DNA of 16,087 bases from positions 1 to 16,087 of the IMG/VR virus record IMGVR_UViG_3300021255_002910; one strand, written 5' to 3'. Shown here piece by piece: positions 1,862-11,548 of this stretch; the stretch's first letter is position 1, and each line of letters begins with the position of its first letter. The notes beneath the pieces are model-generated. The model had not been told where the DNA came from, ran no database searches, and worked only from the letters and a program-made list of their open reading frames with translations. A program made the translations under genes and the position numbers. Source of the stretch: a virus. Lineage: Duplodnaviria; Heunggongvirae; Uroviricota; Caudoviricetes.

Positions 1862-1880
1862 AATTCTTCATTCTTCATTT
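1862..1880 (-). repeat. Heptamer tandem repeat (ATGAAGA)2 abutting the portal stop codon
   Basis: The minus strand reads TAA-ATGAAGA-ATGAAGA-ATT. Confidence 0.85.
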
Positions 1881-3786
1881 ACCGCGAGGTATCTTCGGCG
1901 GTGGTGACGCCGGTCTTGCTGTTGTCGAGAGTAGTGAGGACTTCGCGCTGGATTTCCCAGGTGAGGTGAGTGTCCCACTGGTTGCGGGTGCCGAAGATGT
2001 CCATCACGGAGAGTACGAGGCGCTGGAGGGTGGACATCTGCACTTGCTTCAGAAGATAGCGCTCGCGCAGGTCGGTGCCGCCGGAGGATGATACGTCGCC
2101 GGGGGTGTTACCGATAAGGCGGCTGTCGGCACCCCAGGCGAAGAGGATGATGCTGGAGATTTCGGCCAGTTCCTTCTGGTTGGCTTCGGCGGTCTGCTTC
2201 GAGGATTCCTGGATTTCGACGATTTCCCACGACTTGTATTCCTTGCCGTCGGCACCGGTAAAGGTGTAGGCGAGCATGGGCTTACCGCTGTTGTCGCGGT
2301 TCTGCAGGAAACGGTTGATGGGGGCGATGATCTGTTCGTTGAAGAACTTCATCTTCTCCTGCTCGTCGGTGATTTGGCGTTGCATATACATGCGCTGCAC
2401 ATACTCGTCGTTCAGATAGAGGATGCGGCCTATCACGTTGGCATTGTCGCGGCGCTTTTTGCGGTCGCTCACGAGCAGCGAGGCGTAGGTATAGACATCG
2501 CCGGAGAAGACGGAGTACCAGGCAGGGACGGGGTAGTAAGGGTGGCCGTACTGGTTGTAGCAGACGGGGCAGGAGAAGTGGGTGGGGCGGCGGTTGCGGT
2601 GGACGTTGGCCTGGCGGGTTTCGCGGGCGATGCGCTCCAGGTCGGCGGCTGCGCTTTGGGAAGAGAGGGCGCGGACGGCATCAATCTTGCCGTTTGTGCC
2701 GTCGGGGATGGCTGTGGGGTCGTCGAGCCAGAGGTTTGAGACGTAGGTGTAGTCGATTTTGTTCTCCTTGTTCATCTGCCCGAGACGGGCGGTCTTGGCA
2801 TTGCGCCAGCGGAGGGCGACAGCCTTGGGGTTCCACTTGTAGGTCTTTACCTCTTGGTTGGTGTCAGGGTCGATATAGGTCTGCTGGAGCTCGATTTCGG
2901 GGAAGCAGATGTTGTAGAGCAGCATGTCGGCGTAGAGCTGCTGGAAGGTCTGCAGGAGATTGTTGTTCTGGAGGAAGGTCTTCAGCTCGGCGTTGGTGCG
3001 CTCCCAGGTGGCGAGGTCGGATTCTATCTCGGCGAGGCGGTCGAGGAGGGCTTGGCGGTAGTCGCTGACGGGCTCTTCGGCGGGAGAACCGCCGAGCACA
3101 CGGTCGTTGGTGGTGACGGTGCCTGACGATGGCTGATGGCTGATGGCTGATGGCTGACCGCCGCCGGCTTCGCGTTCCTGGCGATCGAGGTCGTTGAGCT
3201 GACGGAGGATGTCGATTTTCCAGCCTTTCAGGAGGGTGCCTGCGGAGTCGTAGCTGATGGTCTTGTGGGAGAGATTGCCGCCAACGAACTGGGTGTAGCT
3301 ATACATCGGCTTGGGACCCATGCCCGTGGCGAGGTCGATATTGAACTTCAGGGCGGCGGCGGTGTAGGGGGAGAGGGAACAGAGCAGCGAGACGACGTTG
3401 GGGAGGCGGTTGCCTGCGCCCCAGGTGATGTACTTGCCCTCGTGGCCGTTGGCGGTCTTTACCGGCTGGGCATAGCCGCTGCTGACGTGGAGCAGGGGGA
3501 GGTCGGTCTTGCCCTGCTGTCCGCAGTCGCCCTCGCAGGCGAGCTTGGAGGAGATATAGGCGGCGTAGTCGGGATGGAAGCCGCTGCCGCCTGTGCCGCC
3601 GCCGAGGGCACCGGGCACTTCGTAGTAGCCAGACTGACGCAGGCGCTCGGCCTCCTGACGGAACTCTGAGAGGGAGGTGACGGTGGTGATGTTGCCCTGG
3701 TGGCCAGCAGGAGATGCTGCTGGCACGGGGGCGGCTGATGCCGACGGGGCGGCGGACGAGGGGCGATGGTATTTTCTCTTTGCCAT
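1879..3786 (-). CDS. Phage portal protein (Bacteroidetes type)
   Basis: 635-aa ORF immediately after the large terminase. Motifs ITWGAGNRLPN, HPYYPVPAWYSVF, FLQNRDNSGK and LIGNTPGDVSSSGGTDLRERYLLKQ...WEIQREVLTTLD resemble Bacteroidales prophage portals. Confidence 0.85.
   Translation of the reverse strand: MAKRKYHRPSSAAPSASAAPVPAASPAGHQGNITTVTSLSEFRQEAERLRQSGYYEVPGALGGGTGGSGFHPDYAAYISSKLACEGDCGQQGKTDLPLLHVSSGYAQPVKTANGHEGKYITWGAGNRLPNVVSLLCSLSPYTAAALKFNIDLATGMGPKPMYSYTQFVGGNLSHKTISYDSAGTLLKGWKIDILRQLNDLDRQEREAGGGQPSAISHQPSSGTVTTNDRVLGGSPAEEPVSDYRQALLDRLAEIESDLATWERTNAELKTFLQNNNLLQTFQQLYADMLLYNICFPEIELQQTYIDPDTNQEVKTYKWNPKAVALRWRNAKTARLGQMNKENKIDYTYVSNLWLDDPTAIPDGTNGKIDAVRALSSQSAAADLERIARETRQANVHRNRRPTHFSCPVCYNQYGHPYYPVPAWYSVFSGDVYTYASLLVSDRKKRRDNANVIGRILYLNDEYVQRMYMQRQITDEQEKMKFFNEQIIAPINRFLQNRDNSGKPMLAYTFTGADGKEYKSWEIVEIQESSKQTAEANQKELAEISSIILFAWGADSRLIGNTPGDVSSSGGTDLRERYLLKQVQMSTLQRLVLSVMDIFGTRNQWDTHLTWEIQREVLTTLDNSKTGVTTAEDTSR
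3128..3157. repeat. Heptamer tandem repeat (GATGGCT)4 inside the portal coding sequence
   Basis: Four exact copies. On the coding strand it is (CAGCCAT)n, translated as QPSAISHQPS. Confidence 0.95.
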
Positions 3787-3881: not shown

Positions 3882-4180
3882 GGGCTTCGCCCTTGAAATT
3901 GGGTTAAAAATTAAGGTTAAAAATTGGGTTAAAAATTCTTTGTATGATTGTGTTGAGTCGGCTACGCCGAGAAATTATATAAAAATTAAGTCCAAAAATT
4001 ATATAAAAATTACTTTTAATTTCAGGCCGATAGGCCACTCAAAAAAAGGAGTCGCTGACGCGAGAAATTAAAAGAAAATTGGTAAGAAAATTAAAAAAAA
4101 GAAATTTCTGGCCGATAGGCCCTTTAATTTTTGAATAGAATTTTTGTTTAATTTTTGGCCGTAGGCCACTCAAAAAAAAG
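3882..4180. repeat. AT-rich composite repeat region between terL and the portal
   Basis: GGTTAAAAATT x3 (3901-3937), AAATTATATAAAAATTA x2 (3972-3988, 3996-4012), GGCCG(A)TAGGCCACTCAAAAAAAGG x2 (4025-4049, 4157-4180), and several mini-hairpins. Confidence 0.9.
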
Positions 4181-6193: not shown

Positions 6194-6200
6194 TTTTTAA

Positions 6201-6240
6201 GTGAAGAGTGAAGAATGAAGAATGAAGAATTGGCTACCGC
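6201..6240 (+). repeat. Heptamer array (RTGAAGA)4 plus tail AATTGGCTACCGC
   Basis: Read directly. It fills most of the gap between the membrane gene stop (6241) and the terL start (6193). Confidence 0.92.
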
Positions 6241-6876
6241 CTATTTGCCCGGCTCCTCGTCTATCTGCATGAACTTCTCACGGTTTTTGTGATATACGAC
6301 AAGCCATCCAATGTTGTCGAGTCCACAGGTCAGCCCGAAGGTGAACATGGCAAACTGCAACGACGGCATATAGAGCAGCGCACAGACGTAGCCGACTATG
6401 CAGTAGATACCGCAAACGACATCGTTGTTGTTGTCGTACACCTCACGCTCATGCTCATTCCATAGTTTCGGGCGGAATGTCATCAAACATTTGCCGATAA
6501 ACTCCGACACCAGCGTACCATAGAGCAGGCACGCGATGGCCAGCACCCACACGTTGTACTCCACAAAGCAGAGCCACATGCCGACTGCAAAGCCCGCTGC
6601 CGACTCAACGATGCAGAGCACCGTGAACCAGCGGATAGCCTTGCGTCGCACCCATCCTTTCCATATCATGCCTACCACGAGTCCCACAACCGAGTAGGTG
6701 AGCGACTGGAAGGCCAGCCACTCGGCGGGCAGTTCTGAAATCCACGCCTTTGTGATGGCTGGCTCGACGTAGGTGTAGAGCAGACCTGTCACAAAGAGGG
6801 TCGAAAGAGTCCACCTCTGATTGTGGTCGGGATGAATATTGAAGAAGCCGAGTATTCGCTTGAAAAGTCTTAGCAT
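6241..6876 (-). CDS. Multi-pass membrane protein (about 6 hydrophobic segments), function unknown
   Basis: The track ORF is 6241..6906. The likely start is ATG 6876 (MLRLFKR), which overlaps the upstream stop at 6870-6872 and suggests translational coupling. Alternating hydrophobic stretches run throughout. Confidence 0.75.
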   Translation of the reverse strand: MLRLFKRILGFFNIHPDHNQRWTLSTLFVTGLLYTYVEPAITKAWISELPAEWLAFQSLTYSVVGLVVGMIWKGWVRRKAIRWFTVLCIVESAAGFAVGMWLCFVEYNVWVLAIACLLYGTLVSEFIGKCLMTFRPKLWNEHEREVYDNNNDVVCGIYCIVGYVCALLYMPSLQFAMFTFGLTCGLDNIGWLVVYHKNREKFMQIDEEPGK

Positions 6877-7202
6877 ATTCTCACCCCCTTCCATTTCTCC
6901 AGCCATGCGGCATAGATGTTCAAGTTGTGTTGCAGCTTCACCGTGCCGTCACGGAAATAGGCTATTATCTCGTCAATCATTGCTTCGTCCTGCTGCGTCC
7001 ATTCGTCCACCTTCATGCGGCTGAACGTAGCCTGCAGTTCGCGGAAGCACTCATGGTAAGCCTGCCGTTTCAGGTCGATAGCCTGTTTCTCGTATTTGAA
7101 CTTGTGCTCCTCCATGTAGTCCATCTTGTCGTAGCACTCGTCTTCGCGGCGGTCTATCTTGTCGAGCACCGCCTGTAGTTGTTCTCTTTCTGCTTGTGTC
7201 AT
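6870..7202 (-). CDS. Hypothetical protein with a WTQQDE...W motif seen in Bacteroidetes phage proteins
   Basis: 110 aa with A-rich start context (ACGAATTATG). The C-terminus EWTQQDEAMIDEIIAYF...YAAWLEKWK resembles the WSEEDE...WLKSLK module (recalled). Confidence 0.7.
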   Translation of the reverse strand: MTQAEREQLQAVLDKIDRREDECYDKMDYMEEHKFKYEKQAIDLKRQAYHECFRELQATFSRMKVDEWTQQDEAMIDEIIAYFRDGTVKLQHNLNIYAAWLEKWKGVRIC

Positions 7203-7242
7203 AATTCGTTCAATTCGTAAAATTTGTAGTCGTAATCCGTTT

Positions 7243-7590
7243 CTAATATTTCTCCGTGACGAAGATGGTGGGTTCCTGTGTGACGATGCTCATGGTCATC
7301 TGGAAGCCGGCCATCTTGAGGTCTTCGATGTAGAGCTTGAGGGGGTCGCCGAGTCCGCAGACGTAGGCTTTGAGGGTTTCGCGGAGCCGTGCGTCGGTGA
7401 AGGCCACGGCTCCGGGGGTGAACTCGTCGGCGGGGCGGTAGGCGGCGACGAAAGCCTGTACCTTCGACTCTATCACGAAGTCGCGCAGGGAGACCTTCTC
7501 CACCTCCGGCTGGGGGTCGATGTCGGCTACGTCGGGCTCGTCCTGCCAGTCGTAGTCGTCGAGGGGGCGTTTATGTTTCTTCTTTGCCAT
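7243..7590 (-). CDS. Hypothetical protein
   Basis: 115 aa, co-oriented with its neighbours, GC3-rich codon usage, A-rich start context. Confidence 0.7.
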   Translation of the reverse strand: MAKKKHKRPLDDYDWQDEPDVADIDPQPEVEKVSLRDFVIESKVQAFVAAYRPADEFTPGAVAFTDARLRETLKAYVCGLGDPLKLYIEDLKMAGFQMTMSIVTQEPTIFVTEKY

Positions 7591-7609
7591 TGGGTCTTTG
7601 GTTTTTGAG

Positions 7610-7769
7610 TTCGCTTGCGCGAAGAAATTAAAAGAAAATTTATAAGAAAATTGAAAGACGCTTCGCGTCAGAAATTGGAAGTATGCTCATTTGTTTTCCT
7701 TTATATTTCAGGCTCGCAGAGCCTTTTAATTTTTTTACTAATTTTCTTTTAATTTCTCGGCGAAGCCGA
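7610..7769. repeat. Imperfect inverted-repeat AT-rich element with four mini-hairpins
   Basis: AGAAATTAAAAGAAAATT at 7623-7640 (+) and 7740-7757 (-). Hairpins at 7610-7623, 7657-7669, 7710-7724 and 7757-7769. Confidence 0.88.
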
Positions 7770-7779
7770 TTCCATAAGT

Positions 7780-8256
7780 TCAATACGGGTTCTGCTCCTG
7801 CTCCCCTCCGGCCATGCGGCGCTTCTCCTCGTCCACGGCGCGGTCGAGGTCCTGCTTCATCTGGCGCAGGCGGTCGAAGGTGGCCTTGGGTGTGCGGGGG
7901 CAGCCCTGGTGCCAGGCGCGGATGTTCGGCACGGTCATGTTGAACTCATGCGCATCGAGGCAGTAGTCGAGCCACTCGCGGGCCTCCTGCTCCGGGACGT
8001 TCTCGCGGACGATGTAGATGATCTCGTCCATCCCGAGCGGCATGTCGTCGCCGTAAATCCACGTGCCGCCCACCTCGTCGGCCACCCAGTAGCCGTAGCG
8101 GGCGTCGAGGTCCCACTGGTTGCACAGCTCCGCGAGCCATGCGTTGCAGGCGCGGTCGTACTGCTCCTGCAGGTGGCGCACCACGGCCCGCTGCTCCTGC
8201 TTTTTCTTTTCTGCTTCTTTCATATCGTCTAACAGGTCTTCGTATTCTATTGTCAT
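7780..8256 (-). CDS. Hypothetical phage protein
   Basis: 158 aa with coiled-coil ends and a Trp/Tyr-rich core (WLAELCNQWDLDARYGYWVADEVGGTW). Typical codon usage and ACGGATTATG start context. Confidence 0.75.
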   Translation of the reverse strand: MTIEYEDLLDDMKEAEKKKQEQRAVVRHLQEQYDRACNAWLAELCNQWDLDARYGYWVADEVGGTWIYGDDMPLGMDEIIYIVRENVPEQEAREWLDYCLDAHEFNMTVPNIRAWHQGCPRTPKATFDRLRQMKQDLDRAVDEEKRRMAGGEQEQNPY

Positions 8257-8275
8257 AATCCGTTGTTAAATTATC

Positions 8276-8410
8276 AGCCCCTTCCCCAACCCCTGCCCCG
8301 TAGGGAGGGGAGTGCTATGCGGCTTACTTTTTTTGACTTGAAGTGAGGCAGGGATGGTGCCGCCGATAGCTGCTTCCCTCCCTTGTAGGCGAGGGGTCGG
8401 GGGAGAGGCT
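8276..8410. repeat. Inverted doublet of REP-like C/G-run palindromes
   Basis: AGCCCCTTCCCCAACCCCTGCCCCGTAGGGAGGGGAG (8276-8312, +) and AGCCTCTCCCCCGACCCCTCGCCTACAAGGGAGGGAAG (8373-8410, -). Confidence 0.75.
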
Positions 8411-8416
8411 TTCACT

Positions 8417-8962
8417 TTACGGCTCCATCTCACCGCCGCCCTGCTGGTCGTCGCCACCTTGGTCGGTAGAGCCGCCGCCCTCGTCAGGGTTCACGTCGGT
8501 CTCCACGTCCTGCGTGGTGGTCTTCACCTTGGTGGCCGTCTTGGCCAGCGAGAACTGCTTCGAGGTCTTGATGCCCACGATGGCCGCGAGCACCCAGTTC
8601 AGGCGGTCGGGCGTGAGGTCGGCTTCCTCGGCCTTGGTGCGCTCGCCGTTGGTCAGGCGCTGGATGTCGAGGTCGCTGATGCTGCCCGTCACCTTGGGCT
8701 GTATGGTGACGAGCCGCTGGCCCTTCTCGTCGGCGAGGGTTACGCGGTTCGACTCGCAGCACTCCTCCATCACGATGTCGGCGATGGCGGCGATGACTGC
8801 CTGACACTCATAGCTCTTGAAGCCCGTGCGTGCTGCGATGCGCTGCGCCAACTCGACGTTGGTGATTTCCTGGTCAATCACTGCCTCGGCAAACCACGAG
8901 GCTGAGCCTTGCTGGCCCTGTTTGGGCACGAAGTGGCGTGCCCGCCATTTTGTCTTTGCCAT
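8417..8962 (-). CDS. HU/IHF-like DNA-binding protein (Bacteroidetes HU-related family)
   Basis: ITNVELAQRIAARTG...CQAVIAAIADIVMEECCESNRVTL fits the HU N-terminal helices. The acidic Gly-rich tail (DEGGGSTDQGGDDQQGGGEMEP) is typical of the Bacteroidetes HU-like family. Confidence 0.75.
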   Translation of the reverse strand: MAKTKWRARHFVPKQGQQGSASWFAEAVIDQEITNVELAQRIAARTGFKSYECQAVIAAIADIVMEECCESNRVTLADEKGQRLVTIQPKVTGSISDLDIQRLTNGERTKAEEADLTPDRLNWVLAAIVGIKTSKQFSLAKTATKVKTTTQDVETDVNPDEGGGSTDQGGDDQQGGGEMEP

Positions 8963-9032
8963 AATGCAAAAAATTTAAGTTAGACATAATTGTTACTTTA
9001 TCTCGTCGGGCCTCCCGTAGGGGCCTTCTGAT

Positions 9033-9091
9033 TCTTGGTCTATCAAGAGCGGTGCTCTTGGTCTATCAAGAGCCGGCTCTTGGTCTATCAA
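9033..9091. repeat. Three tandem copies of the palindromic unit GCTCTTG-GTCTAT-CAAGAGC
   Basis: Copies at 9033-9050 (lacks the first 2 nt), 9054-9073 (complete) and 9076-9091 (lacks the last 4 nt). A degenerate CTATCAA follows near 9108-9114. Confidence 0.93.
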
Positions 9092-9123
9092 CTCTGCCGC
9101 GCCCGCTCTATCAACGACACCTG

Positions 9124-9131
9124 CAAAGGTA
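9124..9131 (-). promoter_or_regulatory. Bacteroidetes -7 promoter box (TACCTTTG) upstream of the HU-like gene
   Basis: TACCTTTGCA context just downstream of the methyltransferase stop and upstream of the palindromic repeats. Confidence 0.6.
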
Positions 9132-9169
9132 AGCATTCCGGCTGACGGAAATGGGACAGCACGGGGCGG

Positions 9170-9952
9170 TCAGCCGTCGGCGAAGTCCAGCTGCGGTTGC
9201 TGTCGCTCCAGCCGGATGCGCCGCTGAGCAATGTCGAAATACTCCTTGTTCAGCTCGAAGCCGAGGAAGTGCCGATGCTCCTTCAGACAGGCGATGGCCG
9301 TCGTGCCGCTGCCCATGCAGGAGTCGAGAACGAGGTTATCGGTGTCGGTGTAAGTGCGTATGAGGTAGCGCAGCAGGTCAACGGGCTTTTGGGTTGGGTG
9401 AACTGCTGTTCCACCATTGTGGACGTTGGAGAACTCCAATACCGATTTCGGATAGAAATTGCCGCCATTGCCTTGGTGTATGTACCCCTCTCGCTCAACA
9501 TATCCGTTATGCACTCCCCGCTTTCTGCTCTCATTCAGATGTTGAACTTTTGCGCCCGTAAACTCGCCGTCGTGTCGCCATTGCGGATTGAATGTAGGCA
9601 GCGAGCGATAGAATACGCAGATATCTTCAGTCCAATTCATAAACTGCTTTTTTGCGTTCATTACATTGGTCGGTCTTGTTTTTACCCAAGTCAGCTTTTG
9701 ACGGAACTCTTTTAGGTTTGACATGATTAAGAACGAAGTAAACGGCTCGACCGCAAAAAGGACTATAGCCGCATTTGGCTTACATATACGATGATATTGT
9801 TCCCACAGCGGCTCAAACGGGATTACTACATCCCACTTGCAAACCGTCGTGCCAAACGGCGGATCCGTAATGATGCAGTCCACCGATGCGTCGGGTATGC
9901 GCTTCATGCCCTCCAGGCAGTCCTCGTTGTAGATTTGGTCTAACTCTATCAT
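9170..9952 (-). CDS. Orphan DNA methyltransferase, N6-adenine/N4-cytosine, class beta
   Basis: IYNEDCLEGMKRIP, catalytic ITDPPF, HPTQKPVDLLRYLIRTYT and SAM-binding VLDSCMGSGTT...FLGFEL. The catalytic motif precedes the SAM motif, which is beta order. No cognate endonuclease is in the window. Confidence 0.93.
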   Translation of the reverse strand: MIELDQIYNEDCLEGMKRIPDASVDCIITDPPFGTTVCKWDVVIPFEPLWEQYHRICKPNAAIVLFAVEPFTSFLIMSNLKEFRQKLTWVKTRPTNVMNAKKQFMNWTEDICVFYRSLPTFNPQWRHDGEFTGAKVQHLNESRKRGVHNGYVEREGYIHQGNGGNFYPKSVLEFSNVHNGGTAVHPTQKPVDLLRYLIRTYTDTDNLVLDSCMGSGTTAIACLKEHRHFLGFELNKEYFDIAQRRIRLERQQPQLDFADG

Positions 9953-9985
9953 AATTCGTTTCGTTTCGTTCTCTGTTTTTATTGT

Positions 9986-10227
9986 TCATTCATACTCCAC
10001 GAAGAGCATCTGCTGGCAGTCGCCAGCCATGAGTGTGCCCGAAACTGCCCCCCCTCCTTGACCCGTGCGCGGCGCAGTTCGCTGGTGGGGTAGGCGGCAT
10101 CGAACACGCCAGGCGAGCGGCACTCGATATAGCCCTGCACCGTGGCCTGTCGCACGCGCAGCACCCCTCGCTCGGCCAGCGCGAGGAAGGGGCGCTCGGT
10201 GGTGGGATAGTGTCTAACCTTGGTCAT
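9986..10227 (-). pseudogene. Small gene for a domain usually embedded in phage C5 cytosine methyltransferases; apparent frameshift at a G7 tract
   Basis: ATG at 10227 gives MTKVRHY...LRVRQATVQGYIECRSPGVFDAAYPTSELRRARVKEGG. One extra G in the tract at 10048-10054 continues it as AVSGTLMAGDCQQMLFVEYE* (stop 9986-9988). This matches the recalled RQAT.KGY.EC...DLSYP.S..RRGRV..GG..CPTL pattern better than the track frame does. Confidence 0.55.
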
Positions 10228-10233
10228 TGTTGT

Positions 10234-10350
10234 GCGGTAGCAAATTGGCTTTCGCCCATTTTGCTGCTCGGCTCGGCAAAGCTCATGCGAGCATGGCTCT
10301 GCTCTCGCCGATTGCAAAATTCTTCATTCTTCATTCTTCATTCTTCATTT
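10234..10350 (-). repeat. Heptamer array (ATGAAGA)4, a ~70-nt palindromic insert, and tail AATTTGCTACCGC
   Basis: It follows the putative terS stop directly. The insert is bounded by ATTTTGC...GCAAAAT, with internal CATGC-TC-GCATG and GGC-GAAA-GCC hairpins. Confidence 0.9.
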
Positions 10351-11139
10351 CTAAGAGAATGGGTCGTAGGTGTCCGGCTCGTCGGTGGGCTTGCCGTCGG
10401 GCGCGAGGGTCTGCTCGTCGCTGTCGGTCTCGTCGTCGTCCTCGTCCGTGTCGTTGGCGGGCACCATGATGCCGTTCTCGTTCTCGATAAACTCCTGAAC
10501 GTCCTCCACGCGGGCACCGATTTTCTTGGCGAAGGCGGCCATCTCCTCGGGCGTGTAGTTCTCCTTGCGCTTGATGATCGACACGTCGTTGGTCACGTTG
10601 CGCTCCACGCCCGGACGGAGAGCGTCGGCGGGGTTGTCGTTGTCCTTCCAGTCGTTGTTCATCTTCTCCAGGTTGCGCTGCGCCTCGCGTATGGCGCTGA
10701 CGTTGCCCGTCTGCTGCCCGAAGTGCGAGAGCCAGCGGGTGTTCGTCTGGTAGAGCACCTTGTCGAGGTGCTGCTGCGACACGTTCAGCCGGCCTACGAG
10801 CTGGTTCACGCAGTAGATGTCGTTGGCAATCTCGTTCTCCTTGCGCGGCGGGATGTTGCCGTCCTTGTCGCGGCGGATGCCCACGGCCTCGCACACCTCG
10901 CGGCTCTCCTCGTCGCCCATGTCGGCCTTGGCCAGGAGGAGCGAGTAGTTGCGCATGGCGATGCGCCGCACGATGTCGCGGACGGGCGTGGTGGGGTTTT
11001 CCATGAATTTGTGGTAGCAGTCGAGCACCAGCAGCGCCCTGAACCGCTGCGCCGGCGAGAAGTGTACCTGCTCCAGCGCCAGCCCGCCGTAGGCCCAGCG
11101 CGTCACCTTGTCGATGAAGTTTTGTGAGGGTTGTGACAT
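10351..11139 (-). CDS. Putative terminase small subunit
   Basis: 262 aa, helical, with an acidic tail. It resembles the conserved protein that normally sits just upstream of terL in Bacteroidales prophages. The TerS role is inferred from position. Confidence 0.5.
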   Translation of the reverse strand: MSQPSQNFIDKVTRWAYGGLALEQVHFSPAQRFRALLVLDCYHKFMENPTTPVRDIVRRIAMRNYSLLLAKADMGDEESREVCEAVGIRRDKDGNIPPRKENEIANDIYCVNQLVGRLNVSQQHLDKVLYQTNTRWLSHFGQQTGNVSAIREAQRNLEKMNNDWKDNDNPADALRPGVERNVTNDVSIIKRKENYTPEEMAAFAKKIGARVEDVQEFIENENGIMVPANDTDEDDDETDSDEQTLAPDGKPTDEPDTYDPFS

Positions 11140-11149
11140 TTCGCTTCGC

Positions 11150-11177
11150 TAAATGATAAATGATAAATGATAAATGA
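11150..11177 (+). repeat. Heptamer array (TAAATGA)4
   Basis: Four exact copies between the 105-aa gene stop and the putative terS start. Confidence 0.95.
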
Positions 11178-11181
11178 GCCG

Positions 11182-11499
11182 TCAGTGCGTCACCACGCGG
11201 AAGCCGTCAATCTCGATGATGAGATAGTCGCGCAGGATGCGTATCTGATTGGAGTTAATGAATTTCACCTTGCGCTGATGGCGGCGCAGGTCCACCTTGA
11301 GCGTGATGACCTCGCCCTGCTCCAGTACGCCACGGCCAGTGACGTACTTCACGAAGTAGGGCACCTGCTGCTTCTCCTTGGCATCGGCAGGCGGATTGAA
11401 GCCCGTGACGCGAGCCCCCGTCTTGGGGTCGCGCCACGAAAACTTCTCCGTCAGGTTGCGGACGGCCTGAAAACTGATGGTGGGCTGAGTTCGGGGCAT
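11182..11499 (-). CDS. Conserved small hypothetical phage protein
   Basis: 105 aa. PYFVKYVTGRG...VKFINSNQIRILRDYLIIEIDG resembles a small beta-rich protein recurrent in Bacteroidales prophage head modules. Confidence 0.75.
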   Translation of the reverse strand: MPRTQPTISFQAVRNLTEKFSWRDPKTGARVTGFNPPADAKEKQQVPYFVKYVTGRGVLEQGEVITLKVDLRRHQRKVKFINSNQIRILRDYLIIEIDGFRVVTH

Positions 11500-11513: not shown

Positions 11514-11548
11514 TAAATGAGAAATGATAAATGAGAAATGATAAATGG
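11514..11548 (+). repeat. Heptamer array alternating AAATGAG/AAATGAT, about 5 units
   Basis: AAATGAG-AAATGAT-AAATGAG-AAATGAT-AAATGG between the 471-aa stop and the 105-aa start. Confidence 0.93.

Follow-up and report, generated by a model that had tools for sequence, protein, structure and literature searches.

Inverted heptamer repeats ahead of terL in a phage of rumen Prevotella-type bacteria: dispersed gene-junction modules beside two variable gene slots

Background

The question that we address is whether two inverted repeats located ahead of terL, the gene for the large terminase subunit, in the genome of a tailed phage (Caudoviricetes) are the ends of a gene cassette that moves or inverts as a unit. 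The DNA analyzed, here called the window, is a stretch of 16,087 nt that belongs to an 80,087-bp virus record (IMG/VR record IMGVR_UViG_3300021255_002910), which in turn lies within a 133.8-kb gut-metagenome scaffold; the minus strand carries 117 of the 122 genes called in the record. A first-pass annotation had read the repeats as the two ends of one cassette, mobile or invertible, placed between terL and an upstream open reading frame (ORF) labeled terS. In this work we arrive at a different answer. The two repeats are most probably separate copies of a module that is dispersed among intergenic regions and belongs to a heptamer "vocabulary" of rumen Prevotellaceae that is shared with phages, and the genes enclosed by them occupy two variable slots on either side of a conserved core gene. 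The repeats are real, but they are not special.

Results

The inverted repeat and its copies in the phage genome

As previously annotated, an exact 23-mer is present at positions 6209-6231 of the plus strand and, as its reverse complement, at 10318-10340. A repeat finder widens this inverted repeat to 33 nt (6199-6231 versus 10318-10350; 31 of 33 positions, or 94%, are complementary), and the program TRF resolves both arms into tandem arrays with a period of 7 nt, formed by 4.1 units of TGAAGAA on the left and 4.4 units of ATTCTTC on the right. The proposed coincidence of the repeat ends with the start of terL and with the stop codon of a 262-aa ORF was also confirmed; the left array lies 8 nt ahead of the terL ATG (6193), and the right array begins 1 nt past the stop codon of ORF 10351-11139. 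Each arm had in addition been credited with an adjoining 13-nt tail that points inward. The two tails, AATTGGCTACCGC at 6228-6240 and AATTTGCTACCGC at 10234-10246 of the minus strand, agree indeed at 12 of 13 positions, but the right one does not adjoin its array and is found 72 nt inward from it.

The motif is matched 8 times in the window, with 0.07 matches expected from shuffled versions of it. The complete module, i.e. (TGAAGAR)3-4 followed by TTTGCTNCCGC, has five copies in the 80-kb record (at 1863, 6202, 10319, 40942 and 54808), all of them intergenic or overlapping a stop codon. The tail motif TTKGCTNCCGC has only 4 sites in the same record, all intergenic; three are attached to an array, and the remaining one is the displaced tail at 10234. 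Short tandem arrays in general are present in 35 of the 87 intergenic gaps of the record, 12 of them with period 7. When five arrays were placed at random in these 87 gaps, a convergent pair separated by 5 kb or less appeared in 26% of the trials.

The module in host genomes and metagenomes

The exact 23-mer was found in at least 120 species-representative genomes, mostly of rumen Prevotella, other Prevotellaceae and Bacteroidales, together with some cyanobacteria and others, and in 11 IMG/VR stretches located on 10 contigs. In three Prevotellaceae genomes, arrays of three units gave 45, 77 and 55 matches, and the reversed control gave 0-2. A similar picture was obtained from four ruminant gut metagenomes, whose contigs were mapped to the region: the summed depth rises 30- to 100-fold in exactly two bins, those that contain the arrays, and in dozens of contigs the match is limited to 6199-6240 or 10317-10350, beyond which the sequence is unrelated. 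The units are thus arranged head to tail, in three or more copies of 7 nt, and the same word recurs at many dispersed and mostly intergenic loci; accordingly, we place these arrays with the heptanucleotide long simple-sequence repeats and the cyanobacterial STRR. The idea that the repeats specifically bracket the genes between them, which was to be abandoned if the motif were common in the host, does not hold for a motif that is common in host genomes and dispersed along the phage.

Other heptamer arrays are present in the window on the plus strand, TAAATGA x4 at 11150-11177 and AAATGAG x4.7 at 11515-11547; both have a G-free sense and are located 10-15 nt ahead of the starts of ORFs 10351-11139 and 11182-11499. 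Outside the window, at positions 32904, 48793 and 61355 of G000, a tail-like TTGCTACCG core is included in a longer motif that ends in GGGACGCAAGAA and that also resembles the flank of the array at 1863. The sites at 32904 and 48793 have about 50 nt in common and are intergenic, and the site at 61355 is inside a called gene. These three sites represent another small repeat family built from the same vocabulary.

Array orientation depends on the adjoining gene end

When the five phage copies are read on the gene strand, three show the GAAGAAU sense and are located at stop codons, and two show the UUCUUCA sense and are located 5-8 nt ahead of start codons. One of the latter is the left repeat of the window, which on the gene (minus) strand consists of the complement of the tail followed by a G-free and AUG-free (UUCUUCA)n leader that extends up to 8 nt before the terL AUG. 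The relationship was analyzed in a set of 148 arrays from 131 loci obtained by pattern scans. Of the arrays located behind the stop codon of a long ORF, 34 show the GAAGAAU sense and 2 the opposite one (26 and 2 in a strict window); of those within the 25 nt ahead of the start codon of a long ORF, 24 show the UUCUUCA sense and 8 the opposite one. The association between orientation and gene end reveals a strand bias (Fisher p = 1.6e-9) that is also obeyed by the arrays that have no partner nearby (p = 1.2e-4). Because the orientation of an array depends on which end of a gene adjoins it, the two copies of the window are inverted with respect to each other, and recombination is not needed to explain this.

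In the GAAGAAU sense, each of the three frames of the array contains UGA, and AUG recurs at intervals of 7 nt; in the UUCUUCA sense the array has no G, no AUG and no stop codon. The regions upstream of the phage genes are A-rich (62% A at position -3) and G-poor, and they show no Shine-Dalgarno signal. In Bacteroidetes, initiation is associated with low mRNA structure, with an A at position -3 and with a depletion of AUG near start codons (PMC6847099), so that the orientation rule has a plausible functional basis. The UUCUUCA-sense copy may provide terL with a leader free of structure and of decoys, suited to Shine-Dalgarno-independent initiation, and the GAAGAAU-sense copies behind genes would represent a three-frame stop tract.

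A core gene between two variable slots

In the first-pass annotation everything between the repeats was taken as cargo. To this respect, 35 related loci were collected by TerL, 7 of them from IMG/VR and 28 from JGI metagenomes. A 115-aa ORF located between the repeats, here named o7243 (7243-7590), is found directly ahead of terL in most of the loci that reach upstream, and in 21 of them the 262-aa ORF is also present upstream of o7243. Therefore o7243, a core gene, has to be taken out of the cargo. Between the 262-aa ORF and o7243 there are 2-106 nt in 15 loci, 1-2 kb in another 6, and 2,760 nt in the window. From o7243 to terL the distance is in most cases 117 nt or shorter; longer distances were found in L144 (317 nt), L140 (770 nt), L163 (1,043 nt) and the window (1,049 nt). 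Because the gaps on either side of o7243 vary separately, what had been considered a cassette corresponds to two independent variable slots. In the relatives o7243 is kept between the flanking genes and both slots vary, and the comparison of these intervals, suggested earlier as a way to find the cassette in other states, revealed no empty or inverted block with breakpoints at the repeats, the close relatives covering only the left-hand end. In the relatives with short gaps there are no TGAAGAA arrays at these places, and other tandem words are often present ahead of terL, for instance GTAAATC x4.6 in L002.

The genes that fill the slot between o7243 and the 262-aa ORF (slot 1) are partly present in L141, in a different order, in L163 and in L140, and are absent from 15 relatives. 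For the slot between terL and o7243 (slot 2), most relatives lack the cargo, and L163, L140 and L139 carry unrelated genes instead. The 877-nt gap between o7243 and terL in L147 is a particular case, given that it is occupied by the 262-aa ORF; the order in this locus (461-1671) is o7243, 262-aa ORF and terL, with the 262-aa ORF directly abutting terL. Judging from this gene order, the core of the packaging region appears to have been permuted at least once.

Gene replacement ahead of the terL leader

Three of the relatives, L139, L163 and L140, have a terL that is 95.5-97.6% identical at the DNA level to that of the window, and keep the module formed by tail and array ahead of it. Directly upstream of this module there is a D12-class methyltransferase gene in L139, a 312-aa ORF of unknown function in L163 and an N6_N4 methyltransferase gene in L140, so that together with the window four unrelated cargos are found ahead of the same terL leader. 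The array itself has 3 units in L140 and 4 in the window, L139 and L163, i.e. whole units have been gained or lost, and the unit variants CATT and CACT differ among these loci; such variation is typical of simple-sequence repeats.

For L139 and L163, homology to the window sets in precisely at 6240, where the tail of the left repeat has its outer edge. On the other side, L163 and the window have in common o7243 and the next leader array, as far as the ATG with which the different cargo gene of L163 begins, which implies that a whole ORF block was replaced between two conserved spacers. Ahead of its terL leader, L163 also carries a 26-nt remnant (2340-2366) of the 3' end of a methyltransferase gene of the L140 type; this scar points to serial replacements at the slot next to terL. 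In L140 (1660-1696) the methyltransferase reading frame enters the tail of the module and takes the TAG of the tail as its stop codon.

Given that near-identical relatives hold unrelated genes next to the same module, the slot ahead of terL is truly swappable. This part of the earlier proposal stands, with the left repeat as a fixed boundary of the exchanged cargo; the exchange of one unit bounded by the two repeats does not. We propose that the accessory genes, most of which encode DNA methyltransferases, small DNA-binding proteins or proteins of unknown function, would be replaced ORF by ORF at gene boundaries, and that the terL leader module would stay in place as the fixed downstream boundary of slot 2. 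The cause may be selection, if terL has to keep its leader and only breakpoints at gene boundaries survive, or the use of the module as homology for recombination.

Discussion

Taken as a whole, it seems probable that the repeats are spacers that follow an orientation rule, and that a core gene is located here between two hypervariable slots whose contents recombine at gene boundaries. Several points weigh against this reading. The leader and backstop roles of the arrays are deduced from position and composition. The close relatives inform about the left boundary, none of them reaching across the 262-aa ORF's 3' end. Arrays that occur as close pairs in host genomes are nearly always convergent, with the tails inward and 7-300 nt apart (48 versus 1); the arms of the window have this arrangement too, which would fit a common origin as one split hairpin. 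Finally, among the 15 of 74 joints listed from metagenome contigs no excision or inversion joint of this phage was found, but Logan contigs drop rare variants and a low-frequency inversion could escape; stretches without contig cover are no evidence either way.

The initial reading, in which the repeats are the terminal repeats of one mobile or invertible cassette served by an enzyme encoded elsewhere, is in our opinion very improbable. The 33-nt inverted repeat with inward tails is located exactly at the borders of the accessory block, and the cargo differs between relatives, both in favor of this reading. However, the repeats are not specific to the block, given that the phage has five of them and a host genome dozens; the presumed cassette contains a conserved core gene, and its cargo varies in two separate slots; a pair of this kind is obtained by chance at the frequency given above; and the left array pairs better with a copy located 48 kb away than with its supposed partner. 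The earlier statement that no recombinase or transposase family is represented among the ORFs of the window was confirmed with Pfam and PHROGs, and it can be extended to the 80-kb record (about 81% complete), to which the search within the 134-kb scaffold was confined and where PF00589 and PF00239 are absent and no integrase, resolvase/invertase or transposase, and with them no candidate for the cognate enzyme, was found. Inspection by eye revealed no target duplication of more than 4 nt. Some contig joints that skip about 4080 nt were considered as possible excisions and discarded; given that their sides are of 34 nt or less and that foreign letters are present between them, these 4.08-kb skips correspond to hairpin copies of other organisms. 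Slightly less improbable is that the two arms form a long-range RNA duplex, in which, on a polycistronic transcript, the GAAGAAU arm pairs with the UUCUUCA arm and loops out the accessory genes, either re-coupling the translation of two packaging genes or creating an RNase III processing site. The predicted energy of -43.0 kcal/mol, compared with -10.3 +/- 3.2 for shuffled sequences, and the position of the arms next to a stop and a start codon are in favor of this possibility, yet a stronger pairing (-62.9 kcal/mol) is predicted for the left arm with the copy at 54.8 kb, a promoter/terminator-like block (7611-7769) lies between the arms, the units on the terL side vary in sequence and number in relatives with no known compensating change, and the duplex would bury the terL leader, which should lower initiation in Bacteroidota (PMC6847099).

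The bias of the host pairs mentioned above is one reason to consider that both arms derive from one spacer hairpin of the host type (stop, F-arm, tail, loop, tail', R-arm, start). This hairpin would once have occupied a short gap ahead of terL, and the insertion of genes into its loop would have moved the arms 4 kb away from each other. The pair of the window has the same relative orientation, the genes start 6 nt past one tail and end 0 nt before the other, and in L147 the 262-aa ORF abuts terL. Against such an origin, which we regard as improbable, o7243 is located between the arms and has the same position in relatives without any arrays; the left arm is closer to the copy at 54.8 kb than to the right arm; and a common origin is not needed, given that unpaired arrays follow the orientation rule as well. 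A better candidate, although still an unlikely one, is that the modules are portable linkers, i.e. short-homology sites through which accessory ORFs are swapped between co-infecting phages and perhaps hosts. The model of short conserved boundary sequences is an established proposal (PMC3029335), and its application to this locus is compatible with the spacer reading that we prefer, to which it adds a mechanism. It would account for the start of the L139 and L163 homology at the outer edge of the tail, for the replacement of the L163 ORF between two conserved spacers that bear arrays and for the serial replacement denoted by its methyltransferase scar; besides, the presence of the module at other phage junctions and across host genomes makes shared homology available. 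Conversely, only about 40 nt of homology are available, a RecT- or ERF-type annealing protein was looked for in the 80-kb record and not detected, and among all the loci fetched there was no donor copy of the alternative cargo genes and no locus with any cargo gene between the same modules; furthermore, selection for intact genes would by itself leave the surviving breakpoints of illegitimate recombination at gene boundaries. In its extended form, in which rumen Prevotella phages, and perhaps their hosts, exchange above all DNA methyltransferases, ORF by ORF, between ubiquitous spacers, with the slots ahead of terL as one of the exchange points, this idea has in our view a similarly low likelihood.

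The closest known relatives of these spacers are the intergenic TAACTGA heptamer repeats reported in marine Beggiatoaceae, cyanobacteria and some Bacteroidetes (MacGregor 2015, PMC4679880). Both are formed by tandem 7-nt units in 2-6 or more copies, occur as many dispersed intergenic sets per genome, are placed at gene junctions with a strand bias, and have one orientation that stops all three frames; in both, strains differ in steps of 7 nt, the distribution across phyla is patchy, and a role in Shine-Dalgarno-independent initiation has been proposed. Here, in contrast, the unit is TGAAGAA or TGAAGAG and is followed by a conserved GC-rich tail, and copies are present in a phage genome, at the edges of variable slots. 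The placement also differs: the stop-rich sense comes after stop codons and the stop-free, G-free sense before start codons, whereas the TAACTGA sets mostly face the start codon with their stop-rich sense. The variable slots, for their part, represent ordinary phage mosaicism at gene boundaries. As in the mosaic genomes and morons described previously (PMC3029335), near-identical core genes (terL and o7243) flank unrelated accessory genes, the breakpoints are at ORF boundaries and a 3'-end scar of an earlier occupant is retained; the difference is that the boundary is a host-type tandem-repeat module and not a unique linker, its role in exchange being putative. A pair of inverted repeats of about 33 nt around accessory genes resembles MITEs, transposons and invertons or shufflons, but in this case the block has a core gene within it and shares its repeats with other loci, and neither a recombinase nor an inverted or empty form was found. 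The REP/BIME elements share with the host module its high repetition and its frequent arrangement as a close convergent pair able to form an intergenic hairpin; here, however, the arms are made of tandem heptamer words, and those of the window are 4.1 kb apart and do not constitute one palindrome.

These results remove a false lead, in that the inverted repeats are no sign of a new kind of mobile cassette in a packaging operon, and indicate that a phage of rumen Prevotella-type bacteria writes its spacers in the heptamer-repeat vocabulary of the host. The orientation rule offers a testable handle on how the repeats serve gene expression in bacteria without Shine-Dalgarno signals. In addition, the junctions in front of terL represent a hot spot for the exchange of genes of the anti-restriction type (DNA methyltransferases) among phages that are nearly identical, which bears on the arms races between phages and hosts in the rumen.

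Features of the interval

The coordinates of the features described are shown in Table 1.

Table 1. Features of the window, and copies of the module in the rest of the record
Feature	Position	Strand	Basis or remark
Module B1, third (GAAGAAU)n array in the window	1863..1879	-	Overlaps stop codon of ORF 1879-3786
TerL, large terminase subunit, 665 aa	4196..6193	-	tblastn
Module A1	6199..6240	+	(TGAAGAR)x4 array + tail
Slot 2 cargo	6241..7202	-	ORF 6870-7202 (110 aa); ORF 6241-6894 (217 aa, three hydrophobic segments)
Slot 2 cargo leader with 9-nt tandem array (7203-7228)	7203..7242	-	TRF
o7243, conserved core gene, 115 aa; no function assigned	7243..7590	-	Adjoins terL in most of the 35 relative loci
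AT-rich inverted repeat, phased 11-12-nt units and small GC hairpins	7611..7769	.	Between slot 1 cargo and o7243
Slot 1 cargo	7780..10227	-	Pfam/PHROG; four ORFs
phrog_35741 protein (slot 1)	7780..8256	-	
HU-HIG-like ORF (slot 1)	8417..8962	-	
N6_N4 DNA methyltransferase (slot 1)	9170..9952	-	
82-aa ORF (slot 1)	9979..10227	-	
Displaced tail of module B2	10234..10246	-	6 nt ahead of ATG of ORF 9979-10227
Hairpin-forming 72-nt insert between B2 array and tail	10247..10318	-	RNA fold
Module B2 array	10319..10349	-	(GAAGAAU)x4.4 in gene sense, 1 nt past the stop of ORF 10351-11139
262-aa ORF, conserved	10351..11139	-	Upstream of o7243-terL in relatives
Two composite copies outside the window, same record	40942-40982 and 54808-54848		

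The product of the terL ORF has no Pfam or PHROG match. In tblastn searches it was similar to annotated large terminase subunits of Porphyromonas, Polaribacter and Microcystis phages (22-31% identity, E values down to 9e-27), on the basis of which it is a divergent large terminase. For the 262-aa ORF, the label terS retains its positional argument, i.e. the conserved location upstream of terL; the protein has no Pfam, PHROG or PDB-fold match, its AlphaFold model (pLDDT 68) gave no PDB match at E <= 0.001, and similarity to TerS was not found. Exact-protein look-ups with this ORF and with ORF 9979-10227 gave no matches other than the source scaffold and a 2.3-kb contig of 100% identity, and a scan of IMG/VR for a DTYDPF-type C-terminus plus array yielded three unrelated chance matches. 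The model of o7243 is confident (pLDDT 79) and has no significant match in PDB.

Some other interpretations of the array and its tail were considered and discarded. In host genomes, 25 of 138 copies have a reverse-complement -7 box (CAAAnnTA) beside the head of the array, which could suggest a promoter; this is not applicable to the phage, given that in both of its start-side copies the stretch from the array to the ATG lacks a TAnnTTTG box. The tail could be read as the start of a secreted protein (MKNLLP...), but an ORF of at least 60 aa begins in only 5 of the 25 copies that bear a tail. Nor does the tail appear to be a relic of the 3' end of a methyltransferase gene: the paralogues end differently past a shared LDF motif, and the L140 ORF merely runs into the tail.

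A strong RNA fold is predicted for the right repeat together with its surroundings: the region 10225-10355 has a predicted energy of -38.9 kcal/mol (z -3.6), with a strong hairpin in 10247-10318. A part of this hairpin, 10272-10308, is matched alone by many contigs from three other ruminant metagenomes, which suggests that a small hairpin element, repeated in its own right, was inserted between the right array and the tail.

From its composition and repeats, the block at 7611-7769 looks like a promoter/terminator region. A terminator scan gave one terminator-like match on the gene strand (7669-7657), with counts not above those of shuffled sequences, and the scan for sigma-70 promoters does not apply to Bacteroidota. 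This block and the one at 3896-4180, both AT-rich (about 33-44% GC), formed by phased 11-12-nt repeats with small GC hairpins and promoter-like in appearance, are inverted copies of each other (36 nt at 94%). On the gene strand, a G-quadruplex-type run with four GGGG tracts is present at 8277-8301, 25 nt upstream of the ATG of ORF 7780-8256; it has a 76% complementary inverted copy at 2564-2588, and a spike in contig depth together with loose ends at 8276/8312 implies that this GGGG element has other copies in the community. At 9033-9091, in the space that separates the methyltransferase gene from the HU-like gene, a 23-nt imperfect-palindrome unit is repeated 2.6 times, and these repeats look like operator or iteron sites for a DNA-binding protein.

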